DNA of 64,000 bases, from positions 62,501 through 126,500 of the forward strand of contig DBWM01000010.1 of assembly GCA_002309015.1 (NCBI GenBank). Reading direction: 5' to 3'. The translations under genes and the position numbers were made by a program. Under the pieces are notes generated by a model. The model saw only the letters and a list, made by a program, of their open reading frames with translations, searched no databases and was not told the DNA's origin. This document shows, piece after piece, positions 14,701-56,122 of the stretch. How positions within the stretch are numbered: position 1 is the first letter of the stretch; each line of letters starts with the position of its first letter. This DNA is from Myxococcales bacterium UBA1238. GTDB taxonomy: Bacteria > Myxococcota_A > Bradymonadia > UBA7976 > UBA1532.

Positions 14701-15712
14701 GTATTCGCGTCAAAACTGGGACCGAAGGTTTGCTACGAGAAGCTATTCGAGACTCGCAGAAGGCTGCCCTGAATCGCCGGTCGCCCATCCAATCCCCATC
14801 GATGGCCCGCCTCTGATCGATGGCGATGAGTCCAATGCGACAGAGGATCCGGAACTCGATTCAGACATCGAACAAAATGGAGAAGATGAGCCGGATATCG
14901 CGGAAGAAAGCGGCCTCCTTTTCAACGGACTCCCAAGAAACCGGCAGTTCGGCTCCGCAATTCACTGCCTCTTTGAAAACATCGACTTCTGCAACTACGT
15001 CAAACCCGGTTTTTGCGACAGCCCCGAGATGCGCCAGATCTCGCAGCTCTGTTTAAGGCGCGAAGGCCTCGTGCTCTCGGCCGAGGATCACCAGTCGGTG
15101 CGCCACGACGTCAAAACGCTGCTCGAAGCGCCGCTTTTGATCCCCGAGTTTCCGCATCTCTCGCTCTCTCAAATTTCAAACGACCGCCGCCGCTGCGAAT
15201 TTGAATTCGATCTCAGCGTTTGCAAGGGCGCTCTCTGGCGCATGGGCAGGGCTTGCAAGATCGAACGCTTCGCAGACATCATGGCAGCCGATCATTTTTG
15301 GGAAGAAGACTACCTGCCCAAATTAAAAGGTGTGCTCGCCACATGGGATGAGATCGCCGGCTATCTGACAGGCAGCATCGATCTCGTCTTTACATGCCCC
15401 GGCCAGACCATCGATCGCTACGTGATCGTGGATTACAAGACCAACAGCCTTGCAAGCTACCAGCCCAAAGATTTAAGGGCCGCCATGGCCTCTCACCATT
15501 ACTTCCTTCAGGGCTATATTTATATGGTCGCCCTCCACCGCTTCTTAAAGCAACGGCTTTTAACGTACGACTACGATCGGAACATGGTGGGCATCGAAAA
15601 TTTGTTCCTGCGCGGCATGGGCAGGGCAGGCGAGGGTTGCTATTTTTATAAGCCGTCCAAAGCGGTGATCGAGCAGCTCGACGCCCTTTTAGAGGGAGAG
15701 GATGCGGCATGA
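11783..15712 (+). CDS. recB: Exodeoxyribonuclease V beta subunit RecB (UvrD-type SF1 helicase plus C-terminal PD-(D/E)xK nuclease)
   Basis: 1309 aa. Walker A TLIEASAGTGKTYNITE, the SF1 helicase motif series, and the C-terminal nuclease motif IDLVF...VIVDYKTNSL. Confidence 0.88.
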   Translation: MTDREMQNYSGQEEIVDQTTLIEASAGTGKTYNITELVLRLLLERHFKLEKMLVVTFTRAATAELKERIDARLQKSLILLQQHKQGINLEENKEFQQLQASIQKGELQIDEAITCLQDAQDALDMGSISTIHGFCQRILTSFGFETDIEFESELQNNVDDLMDEIIHDYTRQIYETDDPEWYLFLSSLNIFEPSDPYSRQTLKDAVKQLVRDPQLVLDPKPLSWSAIKEHFDRLMVQKEETQKQLRALRDLYLSDPPVFEKSAPTEAQSQSFKNLLMCDPVFSLDAFLSLITMGQVIDQYSGETLPCSLSSLPGWSGLPPFRKYTRFAFQYDRCKTPKQVDHLPKIVELFEDLVVQLARKTDPPYFPELQDCAIATATKEVYDRLILKKQQKGVMTFDDLLTRLSAALSSDQGPELCRMIREQYDAALIDEFQDTDDTQWKIFSQIFQGKPLYLIGDPKQSIYAFRGANIHTYLAAKQSAGSRQFTMQTNWRSDKPLICGMNQLFANPKAFGAEGIDYVQVQASEKHLESGYAQEIGVQEKPIQIRYFDDAIQNGSSGDPISGSGQQLPQILSKVVAQDILRFLETRPYLKSDDPQKIERVHPGHLAVLVSTNNEALEMQKALFQVNIPAVLSGMGSVYDSQAAIDLLYWIDACLTTNNSKKLCTFASTPLCNLFEARDLALLNQPEDVEDADQIQVEERFETLRNRLIEWRKLIESHGFLFTFHQMIEQMELLERLLSLTDGERYVTDLFQLGELLFCAEHEQHLNLDQLREHLAAEIAKKKDDLEGKPDIRQLESDDHAVQIMTVHKSKGLQFPFVWIPFLLKGASFQKSFSVTDLKEGSKEKKLCLHKFDTEHGQEAAVKEQTDLEQEMMRKLYVALTRPQHRVTVYLGQMKSEQSERAPLKRLLNIQPQEKPSKKTPKDAEALAKCKSLFDALQAISSEFIEISACQPPIEGAFWQDPFLEAPELCAAEYSRQNWDRRFATRSYSRLAEGCPESPVAHPIPIDGPPLIDGDESNATEDPELDSDIEQNGEDEPDIAEESGLLFNGLPRNRQFGSAIHCLFENIDFCNYVKPGFCDSPEMRQISQLCLRREGLVLSAEDHQSVRHDVKTLLEAPLLIPEFPHLSLSQISNDRRRCEFEFDLSVCKGALWRMGRACKIERFADIMAADHFWEEDYLPKLKGVLATWDEIAGYLTGSIDLVFTCPGQTIDRYVIVDYKTNSLASYQPKDLRAAMASHHYFLQGYIYMVALHRFLKQRLLTYDYDRNMVGIENLFLRGMGRAGEGCYFYKPSKAVIEQLDALLEGEDAA

Positions 15713-17751
15713 AGCCCTCATTTGGAAATTCACCCGCAAGCCAGGAGCTCGACCGGCGCGCCGAACCCTTTTTAAAGGCCGGCGTCGTTCAGGATGGGCA
15801 TCTCTCGGCGATTAAACTCTTAAGCGATCTCTCCGGCGAGCAGCGCTACGAAACTTTATTGCTTTGCCTGCTCACGCTGGCTGCCCTCGATCGCGGCGAC
15901 GTCTGCTTCGATCTTTTGCAACCCGAGTCTCCGCTTCAGATTGAGTTGAAGAACGGCGTCACGTTTGAAGCGTTAAAAGCCTTTTTGCCCACGCATGCCT
16001 TTAAAGATCGCTCGCCCTTTTTGATGAGCCCCCTGATCGAGCGCTATGGTGAGCGATCACATTCAGATGAACGGCTGACAGCAGGCGAGGGGAGCGGGCC
16101 AAAAACGTTGGGTGCACCTGCATATCACATCGATCGCCCCTTCGTTCTGGATGGCCATCGCCTCTACCGGCAGAGATCGTACATCGAAGAGCGCCAGGTC
16201 TGCGATCGCTTAAACCAGCTGGCCCTTCAGACGCGCGAGACGGGCAGCCGCCTGATCGATGCCACCGCTTTAAACCGGGGACTCGACGCGATCTTCGGCA
16301 AAGCGAGCGATCAACCCGGAAGAAAAGCGGTCTTAGGCAGCTTTGACAGCGCCTTAACCGTCATTACCGGCGGCCCTGGCACCGGCAAGACCTGGACCGT
16401 CCGCAATTTGATCACCCTGCATTACATTCAGCGCGAGCTCGAACGCCTGAAGGATCCGCAGCTGCCCGAACTTTCGGTCGCCCTAGCGGCCCCCACCGGC
16501 AAAGCGGCCATGCGGATGGTCGAATCTCTGCAAAAGGATCTCGATCGCTTCATTGCGGAAACCGTTCCCAGACTTTTGGAGGGCCTGCCCTTAAAACCGG
16601 AAGGTCTTCAATTCTTTTTGGAGCATCTGCAGGCCTCCACACTGCACCGCCTTCTGGGCGTCCGCCGCTTCGATCCCGGATCCTTCGTCCATCACGCCCA
16701 AAACCCCCTCTGCCTCGATCTTCTGGTGGTCGATGAAGCCTCGATGATCGATCTCGCCCTCATGCGATCGCTGCTCCTCGCGGTTTCGGATCGCTCGCGC
16801 CTGATCCTGCTCGGCGATCCCAATCAGCTGGCCTCGGTGGAAGCGGGCAATGTTCTGGGCGATATCGTTTCAACAGAGCTCGATGCCTGCGCGGTCGGCC
16901 GTCAAATCTTCAGACTCACGGTGAACCACCGCGCAAAAGATGCTCCAAAACTCGCCGAATTCTCGGCCTTATGCTGCAACATCGACGCTGAGCAGGATGA
17001 ACAGGCGGCTGTAGAAAAAGTCGTCGGCTGCCTTCAAAACGAAGGTCAGATCCGCCTCTTAAGCTGGCCCTCCGAAACCTGCGCGATCCCCGACTCGATT
17101 CTAAGCGAGATCGTCGAACAATATTCGAGCTACATCGACTGCCTCTGCAAAGGCCCCGATCCCGATGAAAGCGAAGAGGATCATTTAAGCCGCGCCTTCA
17201 AACTGTTTTTAAGGTTCCGCGTCCTCTGCGCCCACCGCGACGGCCCCTTTGGGGTCTCCGGCTTAAACGCCGCCATCCTCTCCAAACTGCGTTTAAGATA
17301 CGGCATCCCCTTCAACCGCGAGCTCATCGGCCGTCCGATCCTCATCCTGCAAAACGATCCCCAAACGGGCCTCTTTAACGGCGACATCGGTCTCTGCGTC
17401 CAGCACGCCCAAAGCTTAAGGGTCGCCTTCCAAAGCCCCAGCCCGTCGCGCCCCTTCATGTGGTTCAGTCCCGCTCAGCTTCCCGATCACCAGACAGCCT
17501 TTGCGATGACGATCCATAAGAGCCAGGGATCCGAATTCGACCACAGCTTCGTCATCCTCCCGCCGAAGAAGAGCCCCATTCTGACGCGGGAACTCGTCTA
17601 CACCGCCGCCACCCGCGCCAAAACGCAATTAACCGTGGTCAGCGACAAAAACATCCTGACCGAAGCCTTAAAACAACGCGTCCTCCGCGCCTCAGGCCTC
17701 TCGGAACGCCTGATGATCTGCAAACAGCAGAAGGGGAGCCTGAACAAATGA
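15709..17751 (+). CDS. recD: Exodeoxyribonuclease V alpha subunit RecD
   Basis: 680 aa. Walker A TVITGGPGTGKTWTV and the C-terminal motif MTIHKSQGSEFDHSFVIL. Its start overlaps the recB stop (ATGA). Confidence 0.88.
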   Translation: MKPSFGNSPASQELDRRAEPFLKAGVVQDGHLSAIKLLSDLSGEQRYETLLLCLLTLAALDRGDVCFDLLQPESPLQIELKNGVTFEALKAFLPTHAFKDRSPFLMSPLIERYGERSHSDERLTAGEGSGPKTLGAPAYHIDRPFVLDGHRLYRQRSYIEERQVCDRLNQLALQTRETGSRLIDATALNRGLDAIFGKASDQPGRKAVLGSFDSALTVITGGPGTGKTWTVRNLITLHYIQRELERLKDPQLPELSVALAAPTGKAAMRMVESLQKDLDRFIAETVPRLLEGLPLKPEGLQFFLEHLQASTLHRLLGVRRFDPGSFVHHAQNPLCLDLLVVDEASMIDLALMRSLLLAVSDRSRLILLGDPNQLASVEAGNVLGDIVSTELDACAVGRQIFRLTVNHRAKDAPKLAEFSALCCNIDAEQDEQAAVEKVVGCLQNEGQIRLLSWPSETCAIPDSILSEIVEQYSSYIDCLCKGPDPDESEEDHLSRAFKLFLRFRVLCAHRDGPFGVSGLNAAILSKLRLRYGIPFNRELIGRPILILQNDPQTGLFNGDIGLCVQHAQSLRVAFQSPSPSRPFMWFSPAQLPDHQTAFAMTIHKSQGSEFDHSFVILPPKKSPILTRELVYTAATRAKTQLTVVSDKNILTEALKQRVLRASGLSERLMICKQQKGSLNK

Positions 17752-43388: not shown

Positions 43389-44933
43389 GTGAAAAAGGCG
43401 TTTTATCTTGCAGGACTTGCGGCTTTGGCTTTGGGCTGCTCGACTCATGAAGATGCGGCAAAGCCTTTAAAATCACATACGCAAGCGATCTATCACGGTT
43501 CGCGCACGCCGACGGTGGTCTCGATGACGGACGGACAACTGCTGGCTCTGGGGTGGCTGCACAGCCTGTCGCGACCTGTCAGCTCCTATTGTTCGGGCAC
43601 CATCATTGCGCCCCGCCTGGTGGCGACTGCAAAGCATTGCTTTGACGAAAACTCCCGCGCGGTGAGCATCGGATTCAGCGTGGGCCAATTGCGCGAGGAA
43701 CCCGTACATACCTTTACGCTCAATACTTTTTTGCTTCACGAAACCCGCGATGTGGCGCTTTTGGTGCTCGCGGAAGATGCGACCGAGGTTGTGCCCGGGC
43801 TTACGCCGATCCCGTTTAACCGAACCGCGATGACGAGGGCCGATGAAGGGCGCATGGTGCAGGCTGCAGGTTATGGCCGGACCGACAACGGCGCTACGGG
43901 TCGATTCTTTGCCGAGGTCAAGCTCACCGGGGTGACGGACGAGATGATCATCGTAGACGGCATGGGGCGTCAGGGCATCTGCAGCGGCGATTCCGGGGGA
44001 CCTGCGCTCCTCATGCAGTCGGGAGAATTGGCGGTTGTGGCTGTCGAGACCGAGGGCAGCAGCACCTGCGTGGGTCAGGACAGCATGACGCGCCTAGATC
44101 AGGTGGCCGAATGGATCGACTCCGTGGATCCCGAAAATGTGATACTGACCGACTGCGAGGCGATCGGTCCCAAAGGCCGTTGCGTGGGCAATGTGGCTTT
44201 ATGGTGCGAAACCACTGGCGTGATGCCCTATCGTTGCGCCGACTGGGGACAAATCTGCGGCTACGACGAGCGAAAGGATCGCTATTACTGCATCGATAAA
44301 CCCAACAACTGCGGCGATGTGCCCGAAGAAGGCCGTTGCAGCGAGACGGGCGTCGAATGGTGCGAAGATGGCGAGGTGATGACCGAAAACTGCGCGGAGA
44401 GCGAGCTGGTCTGCCATTTCGACGAGCAACTGGGCTATTACTGCGCCATGCCTTGCAGCGAAGAAGAATCCGTTTGTGAAGATCTGATTTGGCGCAGCTG
44501 CAAAGAGGGCTTTTGGACTTCGCAGGATTGCGCCGCGAGCGAAAAACTCTGCCTGGCCGACATGGGTTGCGTCACAGAAGAAGAATATGAAGATGCGGCT
44601 CTTGCGGACGCCCTGGTGCCGGATGCGGAGTTGGAGGACGCCGATTCAGAGGACGCCGATTCAGAAGACGCCGAGTTGCTGGATGCAGATTTGGAAGACG
44701 CGGAACCTGTGGAAGATGCTGAGCTTTTGCAGGATGCGGCGAAGCAGGATGCAGCGGTTGTCCCCGATGCGGCGAAACAGGATGCAGCGGTTGTCCCCGA
44801 TGCGTCAACGGATTCGGATTCCGGCGGATCCGATGGATGCAGCGCTTTACCGCAATCTGGCGGCCCTGCATGGCTTTGGGCTGGTTTAGGTCTTTTGGCG
44901 ATCGCTCCAGGAAGGCGTTTGCGAAAAAAATGA
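43389..44933 (+). CDS. Lipoprotein trypsin-like serine protease (S1 family) with C-terminal 6-Cys repeat modules, an acidic repeat region and a MYXO-CTERM-like tail
   Basis: 514 aa. Lipobox LALGCSTHED. Catalytic triad motifs TAKHC / DVALLVL / GICSGDSGGPAL. Four ~40-aa modules (C..G.C.GNVALWCETTG...CADWGQICGYDE..DRYYC). C-terminus GCSALPQSGGPAWLWAGLGLLAIAPGRRLRKK. Confidence 0.8.
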   Translation: MKKAFYLAGLAALALGCSTHEDAAKPLKSHTQAIYHGSRTPTVVSMTDGQLLALGWLHSLSRPVSSYCSGTIIAPRLVATAKHCFDENSRAVSIGFSVGQLREEPVHTFTLNTFLLHETRDVALLVLAEDATEVVPGLTPIPFNRTAMTRADEGRMVQAAGYGRTDNGATGRFFAEVKLTGVTDEMIIVDGMGRQGICSGDSGGPALLMQSGELAVVAVETEGSSTCVGQDSMTRLDQVAEWIDSVDPENVILTDCEAIGPKGRCVGNVALWCETTGVMPYRCADWGQICGYDERKDRYYCIDKPNNCGDVPEEGRCSETGVEWCEDGEVMTENCAESELVCHFDEQLGYYCAMPCSEEESVCEDLIWRSCKEGFWTSQDCAASEKLCLADMGCVTEEEYEDAALADALVPDAELEDADSEDADSEDAELLDADLEDAEPVEDAELLQDAAKQDAAVVPDAAKQDAAVVPDASTDSDSGGSDGCSALPQSGGPAWLWAGLGLLAIAPGRRLRKK

Positions 44934-44951
44934 TGCAGGAGAAGATCTGAA

Positions 44952-46049
44952 ATGTTGCGCAATGCCTTGGTTTTATGGAGTGCGTTTTCACTTGTGGCCT
45001 GCCAGGCACCGGAAGATGCGCCGCAAGTGGCGACTGTAAATCGAGCGATCGTCAATGGATCCCGAACGCATCACAGCGAGATTGTGCCGTTGAGCGAGGG
45101 GCAGCTGAAAGCCTTTGGATATCTTCACAAATCGGGCCAGGAAACGCGCATGTTTTGTACGGGTACCCTCATCGGACCGCGTCTGGTGGTGACCGCCCGG
45201 CATTGCGTGCATGACGATGAGCATTGTGTGGACAAAGAGGAGAGGGTCACCTGTACCGATGGTGATTTAAAGCCGCAGCAGGTTCAGTTTTCGATCGGTC
45301 AATTGAACGCAGAACCGGATCACACGTTTCCGGTATCAAAGATTCACTACCGTACAGATGCAGATCTCGCGGTCTTAATCCTTTCGCAGGACGCCACAGT
45401 GGTGGTGCCCGGACTGACGCCGCTCTCCTGGAATCGCAACGCTTCGCTTTCGGAGTTTGTGGAGCAGAAGATCGAGGTGGTGGGTTATGGCAATAACGCG
45501 CCCAACGGCGGCAAGGATTATTTTAATGGCCGCTTTTTTGCGGATTTAAAGTTTGCCAAACTCGACGATCGCTATGTCTGGGTGGACGGTGAGGGTGAGA
45601 AGGGGCTTTGCGATGGCGATTCCGGAGGGCCCGCATTGCTGACGATCGATGGGGAAGCGGTTGTGGTCGCGGTGGAATCTTTGGGCGAGGAAACCTGCCT
45701 GGGACTGGATAAGATGACTCGCCTCGACGGGTTTGCCGAATGGATTGAAGACCTCGATTCCGACGTTGAGACTTCGGATTGCGGGGGGGTGGATTACGCG
45801 GGCTATTGCGAAGACAGCAGGGTCATTTGGTGTGAAGACGGTCAGCTTTGGCATTACGACTGCGACAGTGATGGCCTGAGATGCGGCTACGATGGGGAGG
45901 GATACAACTGCCTCGATGAGGGGAGTGAATGGCTTTGGGGTGAAGGTGAGGATGGCTGCGGAATGATGCCGCATCGCGGTGGGATCAGTCTGTTTTGGCT
46001 TTGTGTCTTGGGCGTTTCCGCCGTAAGAATCCATCGTCGCAAACGGTGA
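44952..46049 (+). CDS. Lipoprotein trypsin-like serine protease (S1), paralog 2, with Cys modules and a MYXO-CTERM-like tail
   Basis: 365 aa. Lipobox SLVACQAPED. TARHCVHDDEHC / DADLAVLIL / CDGDSGGPALL. C-terminus DGCGMMPHRGGISLFWLCVLGVSAVRIHRRKR. Confidence 0.8.
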   Translation: MLRNALVLWSAFSLVACQAPEDAPQVATVNRAIVNGSRTHHSEIVPLSEGQLKAFGYLHKSGQETRMFCTGTLIGPRLVVTARHCVHDDEHCVDKEERVTCTDGDLKPQQVQFSIGQLNAEPDHTFPVSKIHYRTDADLAVLILSQDATVVVPGLTPLSWNRNASLSEFVEQKIEVVGYGNNAPNGGKDYFNGRFFADLKFAKLDDRYVWVDGEGEKGLCDGDSGGPALLTIDGEAVVVAVESLGEETCLGLDKMTRLDGFAEWIEDLDSDVETSDCGGVDYAGYCEDSRVIWCEDGQLWHYDCDSDGLRCGYDGEGYNCLDEGSEWLWGEGEDGCGMMPHRGGISLFWLCVLGVSAVRIHRRKR

Positions 46050-46283
46050 TTCGACGCGCTCTTCGGATTCATCGGGGCAATCTTTCGCCCTTTGACGGTC
46101 TTCACCGCATTTTTTTGAAATCCACCCGATTTATCTCTTCTTTCACCCTCAAAACGGTTGTACGTTAACGGCGTTTGGTGCCTAACGGGCGATCGTGTTT
46201 CACTTTTGGGTCGCCAGTTTGACTTGAGAAGCCGATCTTTCATTGGGCAATGACCTTTGGCTTTACCTTCATAAGGAGATGAC

Positions 46284-47474
46284 ATGCGAATTTCTCACGT
46301 GGCTGCAGCGCTCGCCTGCGTTTCGCTTTGTGCCTGCACCGAAGAGGAGAGGGAACAAATCCGTTCTTCCGACGAATCTTTCGAGTGGGTCCAAAGCCCC
46401 ATCGTCAACGGATCCCGCACACATGACTCCAGCATCGTCGATTTAACCGACGGGCAATTGAAGGCTTTCGGGTATCTTCACCGCTACGGCTCCAATCGAA
46501 CCATGTTCTGTTCGGGGACCATCATCGCTCCGCGCGTTGTGGCGACCGCCCGTCACTGCGTGCACGACGAGGATTCACCGTCCAGCGATACACGCCCGGG
46601 TGACATCCAGTTCTCCATCGGCATGTTCAATTCCAGCCCGGAATACACCTTTAACGTCTCTGAAATTCACTACAACCAGAATGTGGACGCCGCCATCCTG
46701 GTGTTGTCCGAGGATGCCACGGCGGCAGTGGACGGTCTGACGCCCATTCCCATGAACCGATCCGGGGCGCTTTCGGGCTTCGTAGGCAAGAAGGTGCAGG
46801 TTGCAGGGTATGGGAACACCGTGGGCAACGGTGGATCGGGTTATTACAAGGGGCGTTATTTCGCCGAAGTGCGTTTGGCTTCGGTCGATAACACCATGAT
46901 CAATGTTGACGGTGAAGGGCTTGAAGGCATTTGCGACGGGGATTCCGGCGGTCCCGCACTTTTGACCGTCAATGACCAGGTGGTGGTGGTCGCGGTCGAA
47001 TCGAACGGCGCCATGTCCTGCGTCGACGTGGATCATATGACGCGCCTCGATCGAATTGCCTCCTGGATCGACAGCTTCGATCCCGACGCGGATTCGAATG
47101 AGAACCCCTGTGGTAATGTGTCGTACGTCGGTTACTGCGATGGAAACGTTGCCGTGTGGTGCAACACCGAAGATGGCGTTTCCGCGATCGCACGCCGTGA
47201 CTGCGCTGCTGAAAACAAAGTTTGCGGCTATAGCACCTCGTATGGCTACTATTGCATCGATGGTAACGGGGGATCTACCGGCGGTAACGGTGGCTCTGGC
47301 AGCGGTGGATCGGGTGGATCCTCCGGAGTGACAGGCACCAACGGATCGGGTGGAAGCTCTGTCCCCACCAATACTACGCGCGGTTGCTCTTCGATGCCCG
47401 GTCAGTCCCAGGGTATCTGGGGCTTCTTGCCGGTGATTGGCCTCCTGGCCCTCCGTCGTCGTCGCAACGCGTAA
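46284..47474 (+). CDS. Lipoprotein trypsin-like serine protease (S1), paralog 3, with Cys modules, a Gly/Ser linker and a MYXO-CTERM-like tail
   Basis: 396 aa. VSLCACTEEE. TARHCVHDED / VDAAILVL / CDGDSGGPALL. C-terminus RGCSSMPGQSQGIWGFLPVIGLLALRRRRNA. Confidence 0.8.
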   Translation: MRISHVAAALACVSLCACTEEEREQIRSSDESFEWVQSPIVNGSRTHDSSIVDLTDGQLKAFGYLHRYGSNRTMFCSGTIIAPRVVATARHCVHDEDSPSSDTRPGDIQFSIGMFNSSPEYTFNVSEIHYNQNVDAAILVLSEDATAAVDGLTPIPMNRSGALSGFVGKKVQVAGYGNTVGNGGSGYYKGRYFAEVRLASVDNTMINVDGEGLEGICDGDSGGPALLTVNDQVVVVAVESNGAMSCVDVDHMTRLDRIASWIDSFDPDADSNENPCGNVSYVGYCDGNVAVWCNTEDGVSAIARRDCAAENKVCGYSTSYGYYCIDGNGGSTGGNGGSGSGGSGGSSGVTGTNGSGGSSVPTNTTRGCSSMPGQSQGIWGFLPVIGLLALRRRRNA

Positions 47475-47680
47475 CGCTTTCTCCATCTATCCCCCCGGTA
47501 TCACCCTCCTTCCCTTTCGCTCAACACCGATCACCCCCTGTAAGCAACGCGTTGCCCGGAATGTTTGGGGCATGTTCCCGGCCAGTAGTCCCTTTTTGCG
47601 GTGCAAATCAATGCCCTTTTTCTGGGTGTATTTTACTGTAACCTCTTTGTATTTTTTTTTGAATCACAAGTGAGAGCATC

Positions 47681-49660
47681 ATGCGTAAAGCTGTTTTTCT
47701 GTTTGCCGCCCTGTGTCTGGCCGCCTGCCAGGATGAAGAAATCGTCGATCGAGGGGGGATGACGTCGCAAGCCGACTTCAATCTCTCAATGTCCGAGAGG
47801 CTGTCCGTCGATGTAAGCCGTAAAAGCGCCATCAACCCGGGGGATGCGGAGCTTTTGCGCAAGAGCACCCACCGCACCAAGGCGTCCTGTGGCGACGTCA
47901 CGACTGAAGGTCGATGCAATGGCACCACGGCAGAATGGTGCTCGGATGGTGAACTCAAATCATTCGACTGCGGCAACGTCGATATGGGTTGCGGCTACGT
48001 CAACAATGACCTGGGGTATTACTGCACCTGCGACGTATCGACTTACAATGCGGGGTGCATCGGCAGTTTCGCCGTTTGGTGCGAGACGCCTTCTTCGGGG
48101 GGAAACCCAACGCTTGCAATGTATAACTGCTCTGACAATGACCTCACCTGCGGAATCAGTGATGGCTCATTAACCTGCGTAGAATCCTCGGGAGAAGGTT
48201 GCGGCAACGTCACCTACGAGGGGTATTGCGACGGTGATGTGGCTTATTGGTGCAAATATGCGGGGACCGCATCGGAAACCATTGCGCATTACGACTGCTC
48301 CCAGGAGGGTAAAACCTGCGGGCTCACTTCAGATGGCGATTATTACTGCGTAGAACCCTCGGGAGGTGGTTGCGGCAGCGTCACCTACGAGGGGTATTGC
48401 GACGGTAATGTTTTGTATTGGTGCGATAACCCGGGGACCGCATCGGAAACCATTGCGCGTCAGGATTGCTCCGCGAGTGATAAAGTCTGCGGAGATGATG
48501 GTGATGGCAATTATTACTGCAAAGAATCCTCGGGTGGCAATTGCGGCAACATCACATCCCAGGGGACATGCGACGGCGACGTATTGACGTATTGCAATGA
48601 CGGCGAATTAAAGACGATCAACTGCCGTTCTGCCTATGCTGTCGCGGGGAGGCAGACGGAATACACCTGTGATTGGTCCAGCAACTACAACAGTTACTCT
48701 TGCGTCATCGATGATGATACCGGAGCCTCCTGCGGTACAGTCAGTTCTGCTGGACGCTGTGCTGGCAATAACCTCGAATATTGTTACCAGAATACTCTGC
48801 ATCGCCTTTATTGCGCCGAGTTCGGCTACGTTTGCGGCGAGGATGAGGTCAATGGCGGCTATAACTGCATCGAATCCAGCTCTGTAACCGATGGTGGTAC
48901 CGATGGTGGATCTGCGGATTCAGGATTGATCGATAGCGGTACCGACGGTGGATCTACAGATTCAGGCGTAAACGACAGCGGTACCGACGGAGGATCTGCG
49001 GATTCAGGATTGATCGATAGCGGTACCGACGGTGGATCTGCGGATTCAGGCGTCAATCAGGACAGCTCCATCGGTGAGGACAGCGGAAGCAGTGATGGAG
49101 GCAGCGTGGTCACCGATGGTGGAACGTCGGATTCCGGTGGTGGCGACCCTTGTAACGGGGTGTCTTATGAAGGTAAATGCAGTGAAGATGGTCGATCCTA
49201 CAGTTATTGCGAGAATGGTCACCTTTACACCAATCCTTGCCCGGAGGGTAAGATCTGCGGCTTCGTGCAGACCAGCGGCATGTACACCTGTGTAAAGGCT
49301 CAAACCACAGATGCAGGCGAGCCTCAGGACAGTGGAACTGTAACGGATGCAAGTGGTGAAACCACCGATTCCGGCAGTACAACTGTGGATGCAAGCGATG
49401 ATGCAAGCTCATCCCAGGGGGATGCCAGCGAATCCAACGATTCAGGCAACGTAAGCACCCAGGATGCAGCTTCTTCCGATGCCTCCAATGGAAACAATCA
49501 CGGCGGTAATGGCGGATCCAATCAGGGCAGATTGCGCGATGCCGACGTAGATGACTCCTCTACAGTTTCTGCAGCGGGCTGTCACTCCCTGCCTGGGCAT
49601 TCATCCACGCCGTTTTGGGCGCTCATACCCCTGTTGGCATTCTTGCGCCGCCGCCGTTAA
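47681..49660 (+). CDS. Protease-less paralog. Lipoprotein with ~9 tandem 6-Cys modules (CGNVTYEGYCDG.V.YWC...GTASETIA..DCS...K.CG...DG.YYC), Gly/Ser/Asp repeats and a MYXO-CTERM-like tail.
   Basis: 659 aa. Lipobox LCLAACQDEE. The module is the same one found at the C-termini of the three proteases. A 60-nt near-perfect coding tandem repeat lies at ~48893..49062. C-terminus AAGCHSLPGHSSTPFWALIPLLAFLRRRR. Confidence 0.7.
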   Translation: MRKAVFLFAALCLAACQDEEIVDRGGMTSQADFNLSMSERLSVDVSRKSAINPGDAELLRKSTHRTKASCGDVTTEGRCNGTTAEWCSDGELKSFDCGNVDMGCGYVNNDLGYYCTCDVSTYNAGCIGSFAVWCETPSSGGNPTLAMYNCSDNDLTCGISDGSLTCVESSGEGCGNVTYEGYCDGDVAYWCKYAGTASETIAHYDCSQEGKTCGLTSDGDYYCVEPSGGGCGSVTYEGYCDGNVLYWCDNPGTASETIARQDCSASDKVCGDDGDGNYYCKESSGGNCGNITSQGTCDGDVLTYCNDGELKTINCRSAYAVAGRQTEYTCDWSSNYNSYSCVIDDDTGASCGTVSSAGRCAGNNLEYCYQNTLHRLYCAEFGYVCGEDEVNGGYNCIESSSVTDGGTDGGSADSGLIDSGTDGGSTDSGVNDSGTDGGSADSGLIDSGTDGGSADSGVNQDSSIGEDSGSSDGGSVVTDGGTSDSGGGDPCNGVSYEGKCSEDGRSYSYCENGHLYTNPCPEGKICGFVQTSGMYTCVKAQTTDAGEPQDSGTVTDASGETTDSGSTTVDASDDASSSQGDASESNDSGNVSTQDAASSDASNGNNHGGNGGSNQGRLRDADVDDSSTVSAAGCHSLPGHSSTPFWALIPLLAFLRRRR

Positions 49661-49776: not shown

Positions 49777-50853
49777 ATGTCGCGTAAAAAGAAGAACGCC
49801 GATCGGTCAGAGAATCGCGGACGTTCTGCAAAGCTGCCTCCGGAGGCACCGAGCGATGATCTTTTTTGGGTGGAAGAGGATGAGCAGGAGGAGGAGACCC
49901 GGCCTCCCAAAGAGGAGCCGCCTCTGTTTGACGCGATCCCCTGGAACGACGATCACGCGGGACCTCTGTGCATCGCCATCGCGGGTGGAAAAGGGGGATC
50001 GGGGCGCAGTCTCCTGACGGCCAACATCGGGCTCTATCTTTCGAGGCTCGGTCGCGACGTGGTGGTGGCCGATTTGGATCCCGGCGGTGCCAATCTCCAC
50101 ACGTATCTGGGGCTTCAGCCGCTTTTGCCGAGCGCCGGTGCCCTGTTGCGCGATCCCGGGCCGCCTTTGGTGGAATCGATCCCCGGGATGACGCTGCGCC
50201 TTTGCCGATCGCCGATGCCGGGTTGTTCGGGGGCCAATGATCCGCTGCGCCTGGCCACGATGGAGACCGCCAAGGGGTTAGGGGCCGACGTGCTTTTGAT
50301 GGATTTGGGCACCCAGCTCGATCCTCTCACGCTGGAGGCGTTTTTGCAGGCCGATGCGGGGGTTGTGGTGGTGGTGCCCGAACCTGCGAGCTTTGAGCGC
50401 GCCTATGTGTTTTTGCGGGCGGCGCTCTATCGAAGGCTGCATCAGGGGGATGACGAACCTGCGGTTGTGGCGCGGGCGCTGCTTGCGGCGGATCAGATGG
50501 GTCAGCTCGATTCTCCGGCGGATCTGATCGCGACGCTGTCGGGCGTTCACGCCAATGCGGCCGAAGCTTTAAGGGCGCGGGTGCTCGCGTTTAACCCCAA
50601 GATTCTGATGAACCGCTGCCGTTCGAGAACCGAACGCGAGATGGAGGCGGGCATGGTGTCGGCGTTAAAACGGCGTTTTGGCATGCTGGCCGAGGGGTTA
50701 GGCGGCGTGGCTCTGGACGATACGGCGATGGAAGCGGCGCGCAGAAGGCGGAATGTGATGCTTGAATATCCGGGATCGAGCCTGGGCAGCGACATTGAGC
50801 GCGTGGCCAGGCGTCTGCTCGCTTCAACCTTTGTGAGGGACGCGCGCGTATGA
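49777..50853 (+). CDS. ParA/MinD-family P-loop ATPase with a charged N-terminal extension and an atypical Walker A (Lys->Arg)
   Basis: 358 aa. CIAIAGGKGGSGRSLLTANIGLYLSRLGRDVVVADLDPGG. The deviant Walker A 'KGG..GK[ST]' reads KGGSGRS here, so the signature Lys is kept and the P-loop Lys is replaced by Arg. Confidence 0.65.
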   Translation: MSRKKKNADRSENRGRSAKLPPEAPSDDLFWVEEDEQEEETRPPKEEPPLFDAIPWNDDHAGPLCIAIAGGKGGSGRSLLTANIGLYLSRLGRDVVVADLDPGGANLHTYLGLQPLLPSAGALLRDPGPPLVESIPGMTLRLCRSPMPGCSGANDPLRLATMETAKGLGADVLLMDLGTQLDPLTLEAFLQADAGVVVVVPEPASFERAYVFLRAALYRRLHQGDDEPAVVARALLAADQMGQLDSPADLIATLSGVHANAAEALRARVLAFNPKILMNRCRSRTEREMEAGMVSALKRRFGMLAEGLGGVALDDTAMEAARRRRNVMLEYPGSSLGSDIERVARRLLASTFVRDARV

Positions 50854-51476
50854 CCGATCCCAAACAGATGAACCTCTATGCGGTCCTCGAAGTCGAACCC
50901 GGGGCCACCGACGACGAGATCCGCCGCGCGCACAAGCGCCTGATACAACTCTTCGATCCCGCAGGGATGGTGGTTTACGGGCTCTATCGTGAAAGCGATG
51001 CCAAACGGTTGCTGGAGCGATTAAAAGAAGCCTACGAGACGCTGATGGATCCCGAGAAGCGGCGCCTTTACGATTTAAACCTCTTCCCCAAGGGACATCC
51101 CAGCCTGCGGCGTGCGGACGAGCGCGTGGCGATGACACCTCCGAGGCGGATGGAGATCGTGGGCGATCCCTTTAAAGCCCTGAATCTTGGGGCTGAAGAC
51201 CTGTTGTCGGGGGATGCCTTAAGGCAACTGCGGGAACTCTGTGGGATCTCCCTGCAAGAGATAGCGGATCGCACCAAGATCAGCCTGTTTGCTCTGCGCA
51301 GCATCGAGAATGAGCAGTTCAGCGACCTGCCTGCGCCCGTCTACCTGACCGGGTTCTTAAAGCAAATCGCGCAGTTTCTGCATATCGATCCCGCGAGGCT
51401 GGTGCACGACTATATGGCGAGGCTCAGCGCCTGGCGCGCATCGGCGCTCCCCGAAGATGAACAGACGAAGGCTTGA
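50850..51476 (+). CDS. J-domain-like plus helix-turn-helix (RodZ/XRE-like) protein, translationally coupled to the upstream ParA-like gene
   Basis: 208 aa. Its start overlaps the upstream stop (ATGA). The N-terminus LYAVLEVEPGATDDEIRRAHKRLIQLFDP...LKEAYETLMDPEKRRLYD aligns to the DnaJ J-domain, but HPD is replaced by FDP. The C-terminus LRQLRELCGISLQEIADRTKISLFALRSIE is an HTH. Confidence 0.6.
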   Translation: MTDPKQMNLYAVLEVEPGATDDEIRRAHKRLIQLFDPAGMVVYGLYRESDAKRLLERLKEAYETLMDPEKRRLYDLNLFPKGHPSLRRADERVAMTPPRRMEIVGDPFKALNLGAEDLLSGDALRQLRELCGISLQEIADRTKISLFALRSIENEQFSDLPAPVYLTGFLKQIAQFLHIDPARLVHDYMARLSAWRASALPEDEQTKA

Positions 51477-51537: not shown

Positions 51538-51807
51538 ATGCCCGTCGACATTAAAACCCCGCAGAAAGCGCAAAGGTTAGCCCGCGTCATCGCCTCCGAT
51601 ATCCTGGGTTACAACGCCAAAGACATCGCAGAGGGCTTAAAGAACGACGATCTCTTCGAACGTCTGGAGCAGGAGATCGTTGAAGCGCGCAAGCAGTATA
51701 ACGAGCGCGTGGACGAATCGATCCGCAATCAATACAACTTCCTCGAAAGAGCTCTGGTCGACGTGCTGATCAACAAGTCGGCCCATTTGCCCACCCGCAT
51801 CTGGTAA
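51538..51807 (+). CDS. Small hypothetical protein (89 aa)
   Basis: A strong SD (gagagggagag) lies 7 nt upstream of the ATG. No recognisable domain. Confidence 0.45.
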   Translation: MPVDIKTPQKAQRLARVIASDILGYNAKDIAEGLKNDDLFERLEQEIVEARKQYNERVDESIRNQYNFLERALVDVLINKSAHLPTRIW

Positions 51808-51817
51808 AGCGTCCGCG

Positions 51818-52837
51818 TTGCGCCTTTTTGTCGTCTCAGAAGATTCCGCAGGGGGCCGTCTGGATCGCTTTTTAGCGACCATGGCCGCCGAAGAAGGCGC
51901 ATCCGCATGGAGCCGAAGCCGCATTGCATCCTGGATTCGGGAAGGTCGGGTCTGCGTTGAAGGGCGTCAGGTATGCAAGCCGAGCGCAGTTGTACTTGAA
52001 GGCCAGCGCATCGAGCTCGACGTCCCACCGCCGCCTCCCATCGATCTCATCCCCGAAGATCTTCAGTTTCAGGTCCTTTATGTGGACGATCATCTGGTGG
52101 TGGTCGACAAGCCGGCCGGTCTGGTGGTTCATCCAGGGGCTGGGCACAGTTCGGGGACGTTGGTGAATGGGTTGCTTGCACGCGTCTCTCTTTCGCCCAT
52201 CGGGCTACCCTTAAGGCCGGGGATCGTGCATCGCATCGACCGTGGAACCTCGGGGATCCTTACGGTAGCGCGGAGTGAGCAGGCGCATCTGGGGCTGGTG
52301 AAGCTGTTTGCAGCGCATGATCTCGACCGCAGATACAGAGCTCTGGTTTGGGATCATCGACTCCCGGATTCGGGTACAGCGAAGACTCCCTACGGCAGGC
52401 ACCCCACGGATCGCGTTAAATTCACGGGACGACTCAAGCTCACCGAAGCAGAAGGCCGCATCGCCGTCACCCACTGGCACGTGATGCAGAGATGTTCTCC
52501 GTTCGCATTGGTGGAGTTCCGCCTTGAGACCGGCAGGACACATCAGATTCGCGTGCATATGAGCGAGCTCGGAAGCCCTTTGGTGGGCGATCCCCTCTAT
52601 GGACAAAAGCGACGGATGGAGGGGCCCCTGCGGCCGTTGGGGTTCGAGCTGGGCCTTGAGCGTCAGGCGCTCCATGCGGGCTACCTGAGTTTCAGGCACC
52701 CGGTGACCGGCGATCTTCTGCGGTTTTCGTCGCCCTGGCCGGAGGATTTAATGAAGGCTTACCGCGCGGTGGGCTTTTCGCCCTTTCAGGATTGGCCTGC
52801 AGCCTGTGCGGAGCTGGCGGAGCCGCAAATCGCGTGA
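51818..52837 (+). CDS. rluD: RluA-family 23S rRNA pseudouridine synthase (RluD-like) with an N-terminal S4 domain
   Basis: 339 aa. S4-like N-terminus (GRLDRFLA...). Catalytic motif VHRIDRGTSGILTVARS (HRLD..TSG). Confidence 0.8.
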   Translation: MRLFVVSEDSAGGRLDRFLATMAAEEGASAWSRSRIASWIREGRVCVEGRQVCKPSAVVLEGQRIELDVPPPPPIDLIPEDLQFQVLYVDDHLVVVDKPAGLVVHPGAGHSSGTLVNGLLARVSLSPIGLPLRPGIVHRIDRGTSGILTVARSEQAHLGLVKLFAAHDLDRRYRALVWDHRLPDSGTAKTPYGRHPTDRVKFTGRLKLTEAEGRIAVTHWHVMQRCSPFALVEFRLETGRTHQIRVHMSELGSPLVGDPLYGQKRRMEGPLRPLGFELGLERQALHAGYLSFRHPVTGDLLRFSSPWPEDLMKAYRAVGFSPFQDWPAACAELAEPQIA

Positions 52838-52975: not shown

Positions 52976-54850
52976 ATGAGCAGCGATTTTCAGTACAAGA
53001 TTAAGCGTCCAGAGCGGGAATATCCGGTCCCCGATGTGGAGCATCTTCGCGAATGGGCTCGTCGGGGCAACGTGGGGCCCAATGACATCATTTATGTGAC
53101 GAGCCTTCAGGCTTATTATCGGGCGATCCAGCTTCAGGAACTGAAGGACATCTTTGCCTCGCAGCCCGTAGCAGAGCCGCAATATCGTTCGATCCATGCG
53201 CCGTTCTACATCAACCAGGCAGGCAAGCAGTCCCCGGTGGAACGCCTCGAAGACCTGCAGGAGATGGCGGCGGCCGGGCGGTTGACCCCCGACGACAGCG
53301 TCTACCATCCGAGCTTTGGGCGATGGCGCAGGGCGCGGGATGTGGCGCAGCTGGCCCCTTATTTTGCACCGCGTTCGGGCGCGCATTCGATCACTCTGCC
53401 GCAGCAGGGGGCACCCCGAAGCAGCATCGACCAGATCAATGCGAACTTGCAGTCGAGGGACTTCAATCGCCCGCCGGGTGCTCACACCAATGGCGCAGCA
53501 CCGGTTCGATCGGCAGAATTCGCAAGGCCGGTAGAGGCGTCTTTGGGGGACGGTGCAGTCGAGAGTGCGGATTCCACGGCGCGAACCGTGATGGACTTCC
53601 AGGCGGCCGATGTGGCGCGCGCATTGCGTCGCTTGCAGGAATCGGGGCAGAAGCCCTCCGGAATGGACGAGGTTCCCCGCGCTTCCATCGACCGGTTGAA
53701 CGACCTGATGCTGAACAAGCTGCGCGATGTATCCGGATCGCCCATCCGCACGCATCAGGGTCCCGATCTGACCATGAAGACCCCACCGCCCACCGGAACG
53801 GCTGCGGGAGCCAAACTGATGGCTGCACCGAAGCTTGGGGGTCAGGGTGCACCTGCGGGGGCAGCGGCCCTGCGTCAGGGTAAACCGCTCCCCACAGTCC
53901 GCAGGCCCACAGCAGAGTTCCTGCAGGCGGGACTCGTTAAGCCGCCCATGAGTGCGTTGGGGTTGACCAATCGCGTCAGTTCCAATGGACCCAGTCGACC
54001 CAGTGTGGTGAGTTCAAGGCCTCAGAACCCCGCTGTGCCCAGCAGTCCGGCCTTTAACCCGGGACTTCCACCTTTGAGCAATGCGAAGAAGTCCCCCTCC
54101 AATGGGCCGGTTATGGTCGAGGCCCCGCAGGAAGCATCTGCGGATGCCCTGGAGACCAGGGTCGATATGAACGCCATGCCCATGCTCATGGGCGAGATGG
54201 TGGCAGCCAAGGCGCGGAACCAGGAGCACGTCCCGGGGGATTCCTCCATCAACTGGGCCGCAGTAGAGACTTCATCCAAGCGACCCTCCCTGCAGGAACG
54301 CATAGCGGCGGCCATCCCCTCACAGGCACCTGCACCTCAACCGAAGTCAACCCCTCCTTTGGTGGAGTTGTCGGAAGTGCAGGTCGAAGCGGATGAGCCC
54401 CTCGATGAGGACGCCCATTTTACCGATACCAACGGCATCTTCAGGCTCTTCTACGACATCGCACGTACGTTCATGGTGACCAAGGAGCTCCGTCCGGGCG
54501 AACAACTGGAGACCGAATGTCGACTCCAGTCTACGGGTGACAGCTTCAAGGGGGTCGATAAGCGCGTCATCTACAAGACCATCGCGCAGAGGATCGACGA
54601 GCATCTGAACGGTCCCTTGTTCGCAGCACCCGTATCACCAGAGAACCAGGCGGGCTTCCGCTTGCTGGTGCATCGAACCCGCGAGTTGCTCGACATCATC
54701 CGTAAGGCCGATGAGGTCATCGGACTGATGCCCCCTGAGCGGGTAGTGATCGGCAATGTGGGGCGTCCCAAGATGCATCCCGACGAAGAGAAGGCCATGT
54801 TGCGCATCGATGCGGCATTGCGCGGGTTGATTGCTGTTCGCGCGCGTTAG
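52976..54850 (+). CDS. Hypothetical protein with two N-terminal GYF-like (DUF4339-type) domains, a long Pro-rich disordered region and a conserved C-terminal domain
   Basis: 624 aa. Two repeats of the pattern '...W..G..GP...e.L..l...G.l..d..V......W...' (YKIKRPEREYPVPDVEHLREWARRGNVGPNDIIYV / YINQAGKQSPVERLEDLQEMAAAGRLTPDDSVYH). Confidence 0.45.
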   Translation: MSSDFQYKIKRPEREYPVPDVEHLREWARRGNVGPNDIIYVTSLQAYYRAIQLQELKDIFASQPVAEPQYRSIHAPFYINQAGKQSPVERLEDLQEMAAAGRLTPDDSVYHPSFGRWRRARDVAQLAPYFAPRSGAHSITLPQQGAPRSSIDQINANLQSRDFNRPPGAHTNGAAPVRSAEFARPVEASLGDGAVESADSTARTVMDFQAADVARALRRLQESGQKPSGMDEVPRASIDRLNDLMLNKLRDVSGSPIRTHQGPDLTMKTPPPTGTAAGAKLMAAPKLGGQGAPAGAAALRQGKPLPTVRRPTAEFLQAGLVKPPMSALGLTNRVSSNGPSRPSVVSSRPQNPAVPSSPAFNPGLPPLSNAKKSPSNGPVMVEAPQEASADALETRVDMNAMPMLMGEMVAAKARNQEHVPGDSSINWAAVETSSKRPSLQERIAAAIPSQAPAPQPKSTPPLVELSEVQVEADEPLDEDAHFTDTNGIFRLFYDIARTFMVTKELRPGEQLETECRLQSTGDSFKGVDKRVIYKTIAQRIDEHLNGPLFAAPVSPENQAGFRLLVHRTRELLDIIRKADEVIGLMPPERVVIGNVGRPKMHPDEEKAMLRIDAALRGLIAVRAR

Positions 54851-54910: not shown

Positions 54911-56122
54911 ATGATCGAATCCTCACCGCCCTCCAACCGAACCTCATCTCCGTACGATCAGCTGCACAGTTCGTTCTTAACGCTCAGGCCGCTGCTGTTA
55001 GCGCAGTTGCAGGCCAATGCGGCCGCACGAGCTCTGGGGCCCATGGTGTATGACTTGTTCGCAGAATGGGCCATGCAGGGCGAGGGGACCGTAGGACTTC
55101 TGCAGGTACAGCGGGTTGCCGAGCGGTATCACCTGCAGGCAGAGTTGAGTGAGCCCTTATTGCCGGTTGGGTTTGCGGGCCAGGATCATTTGCCTCATCT
55201 GCTGGAGATCCTCCTCAGTAAGAAGCCTGCATGGATGGGGTTGTTCCTGGTCGAGGCGCTCTATGCGCAGGGGTTGCTCCAGAGGCTCAGATCCCTTCAT
55301 GAACCCGAGCGGGGGCCCGAGTTGATCAGGGCGGCTCAGACCGTCGTGGCTTGCGAACGTTTGGGGTCCTATGCGCTCTATCGCTTTATGGATGTGGTGT
55401 GTGCGCCCCGCGAGGCGATCGCCTTCTGGAGGGCGTGGCGTGAGGCCTGGGGGTCGCAGGATCCGCCCCGAAGGGACGTTTCGTTCTGTAAACTCCTGTC
55501 GCGCGAACTGAAGAACTTAATCGAGCTCTGGGGATTTGATGAGCCTGTAAGGCAGACTTCAGAGGCGGGACCAGGGGAGAGCATCGTCGGGATGAGCGGC
55601 CTGCTGGGGAGCATGGAGGTCAGCCAGGCATCGATCCCCGTGACCGAGACCGGCATCTTCAGGGCCTTTTGCAGCGCACCGACCACAGAAACGGGATCCT
55701 TTGCAGGGATCACCGATGCCATCAGGGCGCAGATGGCAAAGAAAGAATCGGAGTCCGACTTCGCGTCCGTTGTAGTGACACCGCCACCGCCGCCACAACC
55801 ATTTACCCCCGCGATGGAGGCCGCCTTAAAGCAAACGGCGAGAGAGAGAGAGCGGATCGATGCCCAGGCTCGCGAGCATCAGCGACCGAGGCCGGTTTCA
55901 CAAAAGAAGGCTTCAGCCAAACCGCAGAGGATCCCCGTCAAAAAGGACTGGCGGATCCCCGGTGCCCGTGGACTTTCGTGGTTGGTGTGGGGATTCTGTG
56001 CCCTCTGGGCGGGGTACGGCATCTTCAAGGGGATCAGCGGGCAGGCCGACATCTGGACGGGCGTCGGCCTTTTCGCGGCCGGTGGAGCCCTTTGGGCGAT
56101 CTTCGAGTCGTCGGCAAGATAG
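54911..56122 (+). CDS. Hypothetical protein with a C-terminal 2-TM anchor
   Basis: 403 aa. C-terminus GLSWLVWGFCALWAGYGIFKGISGQADIWTGVGLFAAGGALWAIF. No recognised domain. Confidence 0.4.
   Translation: MIESSPPSNRTSSPYDQLHSSFLTLRPLLLAQLQANAAARALGPMVYDLFAEWAMQGEGTVGLLQVQRVAERYHLQAELSEPLLPVGFAGQDHLPHLLEILLSKKPAWMGLFLVEALYAQGLLQRLRSLHEPERGPELIRAAQTVVACERLGSYALYRFMDVVCAPREAIAFWRAWREAWGSQDPPRRDVSFCKLLSRELKNLIELWGFDEPVRQTSEAGPGESIVGMSGLLGSMEVSQASIPVTETGIFRAFCSAPTTETGSFAGITDAIRAQMAKKESESDFASVVVTPPPPPQPFTPAMEAALKQTARERERIDAQAREHQRPRPVSQKKASAKPQRIPVKKDWRIPGARGLSWLVWGFCALWAGYGIFKGISGQADIWTGVGLFAAGGALWAIFESSAR

Follow-up and report, generated by a model that had tools for sequence, protein, structure and literature searches.

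We analysed a stretch of 64,000 nucleotides from the Myxococcales bacterium UBA1238 (contig DBWM01000010.1, positions 62,501 to 126,500), hereafter the window, in which two overlapping open reading frames (ORFs) encode an ATPase half and a protein that joins a J-like domain to a helix-turn-helix (HTH). All window coordinates refer to the forward (+) strand. ORF1, at 49777-50853, encodes a MinD/FlhG/FleN-like P-loop protein of 358 amino acids, identified with Pfam, AlphaFold2 (AF2), Foldseek and HMMER, and ORF2, at 50850-51476, encodes a protein of 208 amino acids made of a J-like domain, a basic linker helix and a RodZ-type HTH of the HTH_25 family (Pfam, AF2, Foldseek). The two share an ATGA start/stop overlap at 50850-50853, in the sequence context CGT ATG A. 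They are followed, 62 bp downstream of ORF2, by a gene for a RomX orthologue of 89 amino acids (51538-51807; phmmer and profile) and by a gene for an RluD-type pseudouridine synthase with S4 and PseudoU_synth_2 domains (51818-52837, with the gene-caller start at 51881). We find that ORF1 and ORF2 are, as far as their sequences and those of their relatives can tell, the fission product of a widespread and uncharacterised single-chain protein, composed of a MinD/FlhG-like ATPase, a J-like domain lacking the HPD tripeptide of J domains, and an HTH_25 domain.

ORF1 has the ParA/MinD alpha/beta fold. It matches the Pfam families CbiA (PF01656, 43.8 bits, cut-off 25.4) and ParA (PF10609, 34.4 bits, cut-off 27.1), and its AF2 model, with an overall predicted local distance difference test score (pLDDT) of 86, consists of a disordered acidic N-terminal extension (residues 1-60, pLDDT near 50) and an ATPase core (residues 61-357). 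Upon comparing the model with the PDB by Foldseek, the top matches were FleN (5j1j, 1.5e-13), FlhG (4rz3), MinD and Soj, with FleN, FlhG and MinD in the range of 1e-13 to 1e-10 and BcsQ also among the matches (7e-8); the matched FleN structures include complexes with the transcription factor FleQ. HMMER searches against PDB sequences returned MinD, Soj and FlhG at approximately 1e-11, in alignments confined to roughly the first 150 residues of the core. The deviant Walker A motif reads KGGSGRS (residues 72-78, 49990-50010). Its signature Lys72, which acts in trans, is kept and is conserved in most of the ORF1 clade, and Arg77 (codon CGC, 50005-50007) stands in place of the P-loop Lys, leaving ORF1 without the cis-acting Lys of GK[ST]. 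Switch I (VADLD, 50065-50079) carries D99 and D101, which align to D38 and D40 of MinD and are invariant within the clade, and Walker B (LMDLG, 50296-50310) is retained, with its D176 conserved among the aligned orthologues. The original prediction had placed both ORFs with their overlap where we find them, had read the Walker A motif as KGGSGRS with the signature Lys kept, and had assigned ORF1 to the ParA/MinD fold, and all of this was confirmed, with the two residues now numbered as Lys72 and Arg77 and the fold backed by the CbiA/ParA matches in Pfam and by FleN, FlhG, MinD and Soj in Foldseek. We also observe a conserved RRRR patch at residues 322-325 (50740-50751), within the motif DDxAxxxAxRRRRP and at the position of the partner-facing xxxGxP loop of MinD/ParA; this patch could be a candidate site for DNA, for lipid or for an acidic partner.

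Next, we examined ORF2, whose AF2 model has a pLDDT of 88.7. Its J-like domain (residues 8-75, 50871-51074; HMMER) matches Pfam DnaJ (PF00226) at 46.9 bits (cut-off 27.8) and has a predicted four-helix J fold, with a target-normalised Foldseek template-modelling (TM) score of up to 0.89 against J domains. HMMER aligns QYHPD of Thermus thermophilus DnaJ2 to LFDPA of ORF2; the equivalent of HPD is therefore D36-P37-A38 (50955-50963), followed by a six-residue insert, GMVVYG, and both the His and the Asp are gone. The change had been predicted as HPD to FDP: the loss of HPD stands, and the register was one residue out, the aligned tripeptide being DPA. The sequence [FY]DP is present in every ORF2 orthologue and HPD in none, and across the wider family a His occupies the HPD position in 3 of 313 J-like domains. 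The His of HPD is needed for stimulation of the Hsp70 ATPase. With HPD missing, ORF2 lies outside the strict DnaJ co-chaperones.

The HTH_25 domain of ORF2 (PF13413; residues 124-183, 51219-51398; Pfam, Foldseek, HMMER) scores 69.5 bits in Pfam (cut-off 24.6). The expectation that it would be RodZ-like was borne out, as its best PDB sequence matches are the RodZ homologues Ct009 (chlamydial, 4gqm), YmfM (3fym) and Thermotoga maritima RodZ (2wus), and Foldseek superposes it with a root-mean-square deviation of 1.7 Å on YmfM, and of 1.7-1.9 Å on YmfM and the T. maritima RodZ of the MreB complex. Its segment PVYLTGF aligns with PVYAQGF of Ct009, so that the aromatic pair Y165 (51342-51344) and F169 (51354-51356) corresponds to the MreB-contact pair of RodZ (Y66 and F70 in Ct009). 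Mutation of Y66/F70 in Ct009, equivalent to F60/Y64 of Escherichia coli RodZ, abolishes MreB binding (PMC4047632). The pair is invariant in the split clade, and YF is found in 272 of the 313 family members. ORF2 has no transmembrane segment (maximum Kyte-Doolittle hydropathy over 19 residues of 0.74) and ends 25 residues past the HTH; because it has no transmembrane segment, it is not RodZ.

The distant homologues of ORF1 are chains of 480-640 amino acids in which MinD-like, J-like and HTH_25 parts follow one another in the gene order found here. A profile search covering 1.84 billion representative proteins returned 2118 proteins at E<=1e-30, a number that may include generic MinD/ParA relatives, and most of the top 150 are fused. 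The typical relative is a fused chain of about 500-600 amino acids, and one fused relative is from the cultured myxobacterium Pendulispora brunnea. At the loci with two genes, the stop of ORF1 and the start of ORF2 overlap in 16 of 16 cases, as ATGA, GTGA or TGATG, as would be expected of a gene fission that keeps translation coupled at a ratio of 1:1. Both ORFs of the window are intact, and they are 50-74% identical to their orthologues over their full length. The split forms carry two elements of their own. The first is the acidic disordered N-terminal extension of ORF1, with the motifs TxDVE and GEIPW, which is confined to them. The second is a basic helix in the ORF2 linker, GHPSLRRADxRVA, which is near-invariant in split orthologues and absent from fused relatives; it forms part of the linker motif FPKGHPSLRRADERVAMT (51084-51137), defined from the alignment of split-type orthologues, in which G82, H83, P84, S85, L86, R88, A89, D90 and R92 are at least 90% conserved, and AF2 predicts a short helix at residues 84-93, in a low-confidence region. 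We infer that the linker motif is a candidate docking peptide for ORF1, and that this helix and the N-terminal extension may together replace the lost covalent link. Searching found no literature on a ParA-like plus J-domain architecture in Myxococcus.

Examination of the genes downstream places this pair next to romX. The 89-amino-acid product aligns with Myxococcus xanthus RomX (PDB 8zna) over residues 9-89 against 7-87 without gaps (phmmer, 1.4e-18) and matches a RomX profile at 3.5e-34, which identifies it as an orthologue of this three-helix-bundle protein; it has no Pfam match. In M. xanthus, RomX (MXAN_3350) and its partner RomR regulate the small GTPase MglA to set front-rear polarity. 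The order ParA-like, J-HTH, RomX, RluD recurs in at least 11 Myxococcota genomes with the split form, and RomX and RluD also follow fused canonical members, whose RomX homologues are 39-40% identical to that of the window. When scanning metagenomes with the RomX profile, we obtained 80 loci with 38-55% identity. We counted a J-HTH gene, fused or split, if it was encoded on the romX strand no more than 600 bp ahead of romX. Such a directly upstream gene is present at 44 of the 61 loci for which 700 bp or more precede romX, and at 26 of the 32 for which 2 kb or more do. By strict criteria, rluD is directly downstream of romX in 8 of 51 loci, which indicates that the rluD linkage is weaker than the linkage between J-HTH and romX, or that intervening genes are common. 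A GYF_2-domain protein of 624 amino acids with a long low-complexity middle rich in Pro, Ala and Ser (52976-54850) is conserved downstream of rluD in Myxococcota split-type loci and may or may not be part of the module; it is followed by a gene for a 403-amino-acid protein with no family match (54911-56122).

The same gene order is present in M. xanthus, where MXAN_3349 is followed by MXAN_3350 (RomX) and MXAN_3352 (RluA-family pseudouridine synthase). MXAN_3349 (WP_011553383.1, UniProt Q1D726) is a single chain of 579 amino acids annotated as 'helix-turn-helix domain-containing', whereas the window has two genes. Its J-like sequence is of the same family (LYAPDSIAVYAL against LFDPAGMVVYGL), and the stretch ELYAPDSIAVYALVD shares 40-46% identity with J-like domains of family members; SCOP a.35 is listed for the protein. 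ORF1 and ORF2 are thus predicted to be the split counterpart of MXAN_3349, in a conserved cluster with romX and rluD. The window pair is a lineage-specific variant, split and with Lys replaced by Arg (K to R), of the uncharacterised MXAN_3349 family, whose adjacency to romX has apparently, as far as we found, not been exploited before. In the literature searched, MXAN_3349 is named in one study only (PMC11019930 and its preprint), with no function assigned to it. In that study it co-immunoprecipitated with MxDnaK1 and MxDnaK2, a split NanoLuc assay confirmed the interaction, and heat shock lowered its expression, as it did for MxDnaK2 (PMC11019930). These observations, together with the genuine J fold that is predicted, favour a specialised DnaK co-factor, in which the J-like domain would recruit or hold a DnaK paralogue wherever the HTH and the ATPase dimer place it, without stimulating it, in the manner of Pam16 relative to Pam18, and in which romX would be incidental. 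However, all but 3 of the 313 family members lack the HPD His, the co-immunoprecipitation may reflect a client, and the strong RomX linkage would be left without an explanation. We regard this account as rather unlikely, and it overlaps with the model that we favour below.

We then turned to the Walker A substitution. Among full-length ORF1 orthologues (50-74% identity), approximately 30 of 33 carry KGGxGR[ST], the exceptions being NGGAGRT, SGGVGRS and KGGAGSS. The Arg codon across 25 loci is CGC in 14, CGG in 5, CGA in 4 and CGT in 2, and this variation among CGG, CGA, CGC and CGT is indicative of synonymous drift under purifying selection; CGN codons are at least two substitutions away from the AAR codons of Lys. 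The identical protein is present in three independent assemblies. Conservation in orthologues had been set beforehand as what would separate true variants from errors, and since both the K to R change and the loss of HPD are kept in them, the variants are not errors. A reading in which sequencing or assembly errors, or decaying pseudogenes, account for the two changes is refuted by the three assemblies, the CGN variation over 25 loci, the intact ORFs and the high-confidence AF2 models, and we give it practically no probability.

The conservation of K to R is a matter of lineage. Across 200 aligned family members we observe the Walker A states KGGVGK[ST], KGGxGR[ST], RGGVGK[ST], KGGVG[T/A/V][ST], RGGxGTS and the eroded RPGVGHS/GAALSAE, with RGGVGK[ST] found in Polyangiaceae, where the Walker B Asp is often lost too. 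In a neighbour-joining tree of 176 tips, which is rough and carries no support values, K to R forms one large block of approximately 50 tips that brings together every split form from Myxococcota and the fused forms from Acidobacteriota; only three tips inside the block are without the Arg, and approximately six further occurrences are scattered outside it. The scan of the genome collection used split-clade alignment patterns that require GR[ST] and is uninformative on canonical relatives. Among the RomX-linked metagenomic relatives with a readable Walker A, the motif is the canonical KGG[VI]GKS in 24 of 24, from which it follows that the RomX-linked module is normally canonical. The K to R change seen in the window is therefore derived and has become fixed in this lineage; it is not a property of the whole family. 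Full-text searching found no relevant literature on the KGGVGR motif. We also observe KGGxGR[ST] in MinD-like genes of Halobacteriales (loci L045-L053), which match ORF1 only around the P-loop, suggesting that K to R arose independently in archaeal MinD homologues.

The fusions and the Walker A spectrum bear on what the pair does. That the two products work together, as had been proposed, is supported by the fused state of most relatives and by the overlap at 16 of 16 split loci, whereas the proposed form of this partnership, a ParA spatial organiser with a DNA- or membrane-bound partner, is doubtful in view of the fusions and the lack of a transmembrane segment, of a ParB domain and of an upstream repeat. 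In classical ParA positioning, ORF1 would cycle on the nucleoid or membrane and ORF2 would be a DNA-bound adaptor, similar to ParB or MinE, that positions a cargo. ORF1 does have the ParA/MinD fold with signature Lys, switch I and Walker B, the HTH of ORF2 belongs to the XRE superfamily, the Arg-rich linker helix of ORF2 could stimulate the ATPase much as the N-terminal peptides of ParB or MinE do, and the canonical KGGxGKS of RomX-linked relatives suggests an ancestrally active ATPase. However, ATPase and 'adaptor' are one polypeptide in most relatives, while a diffusion ratchet needs them to separate, and the Walker A motif has degenerated repeatedly in the family (K to R, T, A, V or S, and even RPGVGHS). 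Moreover, Pfam gave no ParB/Srx or ribbon-helix-helix match, and we found neither a C-terminal amphipathic membrane helix nor a transmembrane segment; the locus is chromosomal, with no repeats or palindromes upstream; and an engineered K to R change at the same position inactivates Caulobacter ParA (PMC4523614). A ParA/ParB-like positioning cycle is thus less likely than a scaffold, and we assign it a low probability.

The family also occurs in other genomic contexts. Wherever the flanks of an acidobacterial-type locus are long enough to show it, the fused KGGVGRS gene lies directly after prkA, DUF444 (yeaH/yhbH) and spoVR (ycgB) and before GCS2 and FTCD. The loci of Acidobacteriota type are L018-L043, L048 and L059-L061 of our set, and in L059 (5291-14040) the start of the fusion gene overlaps the spoVR stop. 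In the YeaG/YeaH/YcgB and PrkA/SpoVR literature searched, we came across no mention of a ParA-like gene belonging to the prkA-yeaH-spoVR operon. The link is of interest for this second conserved stress module, which is itself poorly understood. In Polyangia and one metagenome-assembled genome (MAG) of Myxococcaceae, the gene directly after a fused paralogue encodes a PMT_2 glycosyltransferase and is not romX, and Myxococcota may carry two paralogous lineages of the family. These PMT_2-linked paralogues (Polyangiaceae, Pendulispora and the Myxococcaceae MAG; L056-L058, L062, L065) often read RGGVGKT and have lost the Walker B Asp. Finally, at locus L016 (9473-12876) a ParA-like protein reads KGGAGRS and carries a long N-terminal extension rich in Pro and Glu; its gene is followed by an overlapping gene for a Ser/Thr kinase of 652 amino acids and by no J-HTH, which suggests that the ATPase half can swap partners.

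The position of the gene within operons, in three different contexts, could be read as that of a nucleotide-switched transcription regulator, in which an ATP-bound ORF1 dimer would pair two ORF2 HTHs on an operator of romX-rluD, or of the prkA operon in Acidobacteriota, much as the type Ia ParA/SopA proteins repress their own genes or FleN acts on FleQ. The HTH is in the XRE/lambda-repressor superfamily, in agreement with the SCOP a.35 listing for MXAN_3349, and FleN provides the closest solved structures to ORF1, FleQ complexes included. Yet the HTH is of the RodZ subfamily, whose characterised members bind MreB through the aromatic pair that is kept here, and such a regulator would leave no role for the J-like domain. 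In addition, the usual place of the module is ahead of its operon or within it, and not beside a divergent promoter, and the 116 bp upstream of ORF1 contain no inverted repeat. More generally, we detected no inverted or operator-like repeat in that 116-bp region, and promoter and terminator scans gave results at chance level. Transcription regulation as the function of the module therefore seems improbable to us.

Several further candidates were set aside. A defence-system reading was dropped, as PADLOC models gave negligible matches only, and a plasmid or phage partition system was rejected because the window holds the chromosomal housekeeping genes RecBCD, AspRS and H+-PPase. The system RodZ-MinJ (PMC5778138) and the orphan ParAs of Bdellovibrio (PMC7186360) are not demonstrably related to the family, and the effect of Bdellovibrio ParA2 on gliding reversals (PMC7186360) is a loose parallel only. 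Elsewhere in the window, at 5668-9354, 11783-15712 and 15709-17751, we observe what looks like a set of RecC, RecB-like (UvrD-helicase) and RecD-like genes, interrupted by a pyridoxal/HMP-kinase-like gene and a DUF6261 gene; all are ordinary chromosomal genes. The region 43389-49660 encodes three tandem trypsin-like secreted proteases and a Cys-rich repeat protein of 659 amino acids, all of which end in 'GC..P....W', a hydrophobic stretch and RRRR. We take these tails to resemble the MYXO-CTERM sorting signal.

The reading that we favour, to which we give about an even chance of being right, is an ATP-bound dimer scaffold of ORF1 with ORF2 arms that link DnaK and MreB (or DNA), associated with RomX in Myxococcota. 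In this model, ORF1 would bind ATP and form a nucleotide-sandwich dimer of the MinD/ParA type, because the trans-acting Lys, switch I and Walker B are retained, and its turnover would be slow or would occur only upon a trigger, because Arg stands at the position of the cis-acting Lys. ORF1 would therefore be a long-lived, nucleotide-dependent dimerisation scaffold like BcsQ and not a fast-cycling positioning ATPase. Two precedents exist for such altered P-loops: the engineered K20R form of Caulobacter ParA is dominant-negative (PMC4523614), and BcsQ, in which the cis Lys is changed to Thr and the trans Lys to Arg, forms a stable ATP sandwich dimer with weak ATPase activity (PMC7840130). ORF2 would be made at a ratio of 1:1 through translational coupling and would stay bound to ORF1, possibly by docking of its basic HPSLRRAD helix with the acidic N-terminal tail of ORF1; the covalent fusion in most relatives argues for such a stable complex and against a ParA/ParB chase. 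Dimerisation of ORF1 would then present two J-like/HTH arms, in which the J-like domain would bind a DnaK-type Hsp70 without stimulating it, the HPD His being absent, and the HTH_25 domain would bind MreB in RodZ fashion, or, less likely, DNA. In Myxococcota the cellular role would likely lie in the RomX/RomR-MglA pathway of front-rear polarity and motility.

A number of points weigh against this scaffold model. ATP binding by a P-loop with Arg is assumed from the mutant precedents, and the retained D99, D101 and D176 are equally compatible with continuing hydrolysis. Pfam HTH_25 domains have the aromatic pair as a general hallmark, and its conservation is hence no proof of MreB binding; moreover, T. 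maritima RodZ K36 aligns to Ala148 of ORF2. The fused architecture of MXAN_3349 is deduced from its length, annotation, J-like similarity and synteny, and its interaction with the DnaK proteins could mean that it is a client and not a co-chaperone. Furthermore, gene neighbourhood alone is no proof of a shared pathway, and family members in Acidobacteriota and Polyangia have no RomX beside them, which indicates that its core function is not RomX-specific.

The front-rear polarity of M. xanthus (MglA, MglB, RomR/RomX, MglC, RomY) is a leading model of bacterial polarity, and a family combining a MinD-like switch with J-like and RodZ-type domains adjoins romX in approximately 70-80% of the romX loci examined. 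M. xanthus is a genetically tractable organism in which a connection can be tested. Given the romX linkage, the cellular function that appeals to us most is one in polarity and motility, although we hold it to be less likely than not. MglA-GTP has reportedly been linked to MreB, in work by Treuner-Lange and co-workers in 2015, and to our knowledge this connection at the gliding complexes is not fully explained. It is possible, though doubtful, that the module is an unrecognised component of the MglA-RomR/RomX system that may physically couple the polarity GTPase module to MreB and to DnaK paralogues, with the K to R form as a naturally 'locked' ATP-state variant. If true, the 'locked' variant would show that ATP turnover is dispensable for the polarity role.

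Finally, we compared the pair with known systems, and found that ORF1 is outside strict MinD, FlhG and BcsQ, as at least one defining feature fails for each. With MinD, FlhG and FleN it has in common the fold, the signature Lys, the Asp pair of switch I and Walker B, and it differs from them in having Arg for the P-loop Lys; its NCBIfam scores fall far short of the cut-offs. The amphipathic membrane-targeting helix of MinD is not evident in ORF1, where helix 335-357 belongs to the core and, in fused relatives, runs into the J-like domain. No MinC/MinE, min or flagellar Pfam family was found among the window ORFs scanned, and no FlhG-type DQAxxLR activator motif was seen by eye in ORF1 residues 1-60; the 'FlhG' labels that JGI gives to family members are automatic names. 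The annotation-level families NF047398 ('KGGVGR-motif variant AAA ATPase') and NF040564 ('SCO2523 family variant P-loop protein') have the same kind of K to R Walker A as ORF1, but ORF1 falls outside both, scoring 22.6 bits where the cut-off is 90 and 13.7 bits where it is 200, respectively. Regarding ORF2, the HTH_25 domain and the aromatic pair are common to it and RodZ, but its HTH is C-terminal, after the J-like domain, and it has neither a transmembrane helix nor a periplasmic domain. The J fold is shared with DnaJ/Hsp40 and Pam16, from which ORF2 differs by DPA in place of HPD and by its six-residue loop insert, and G/F, zinc-finger and client-binding domains are all missing from it. The best NCBIfam match of ORF1 is BcsQ (TIGR03371), in the N-terminal region only and at 47.5 bits against a cut-off of 157.85. 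BcsQ is an assembly scaffold that acts with the small partner BcsR in cellulose secretion (PMC7840130), and no bcs genes were found. Because its orthologous proteins range from the canonical motif through K to R and K to T/A/V to full erosion, the family is a natural experiment on Walker A. It could reveal under what conditions hydrolysis is required of MinD/ParA proteins and under what conditions dimerisation upon ATP binding suffices, and it extends the BcsQ precedent. Relative to BcsQ (RGGVGTT), in which the switch I Asp has been lost (Cys39) and the cis position is Thr, ORF1 keeps both Asp residues and carries Arg.

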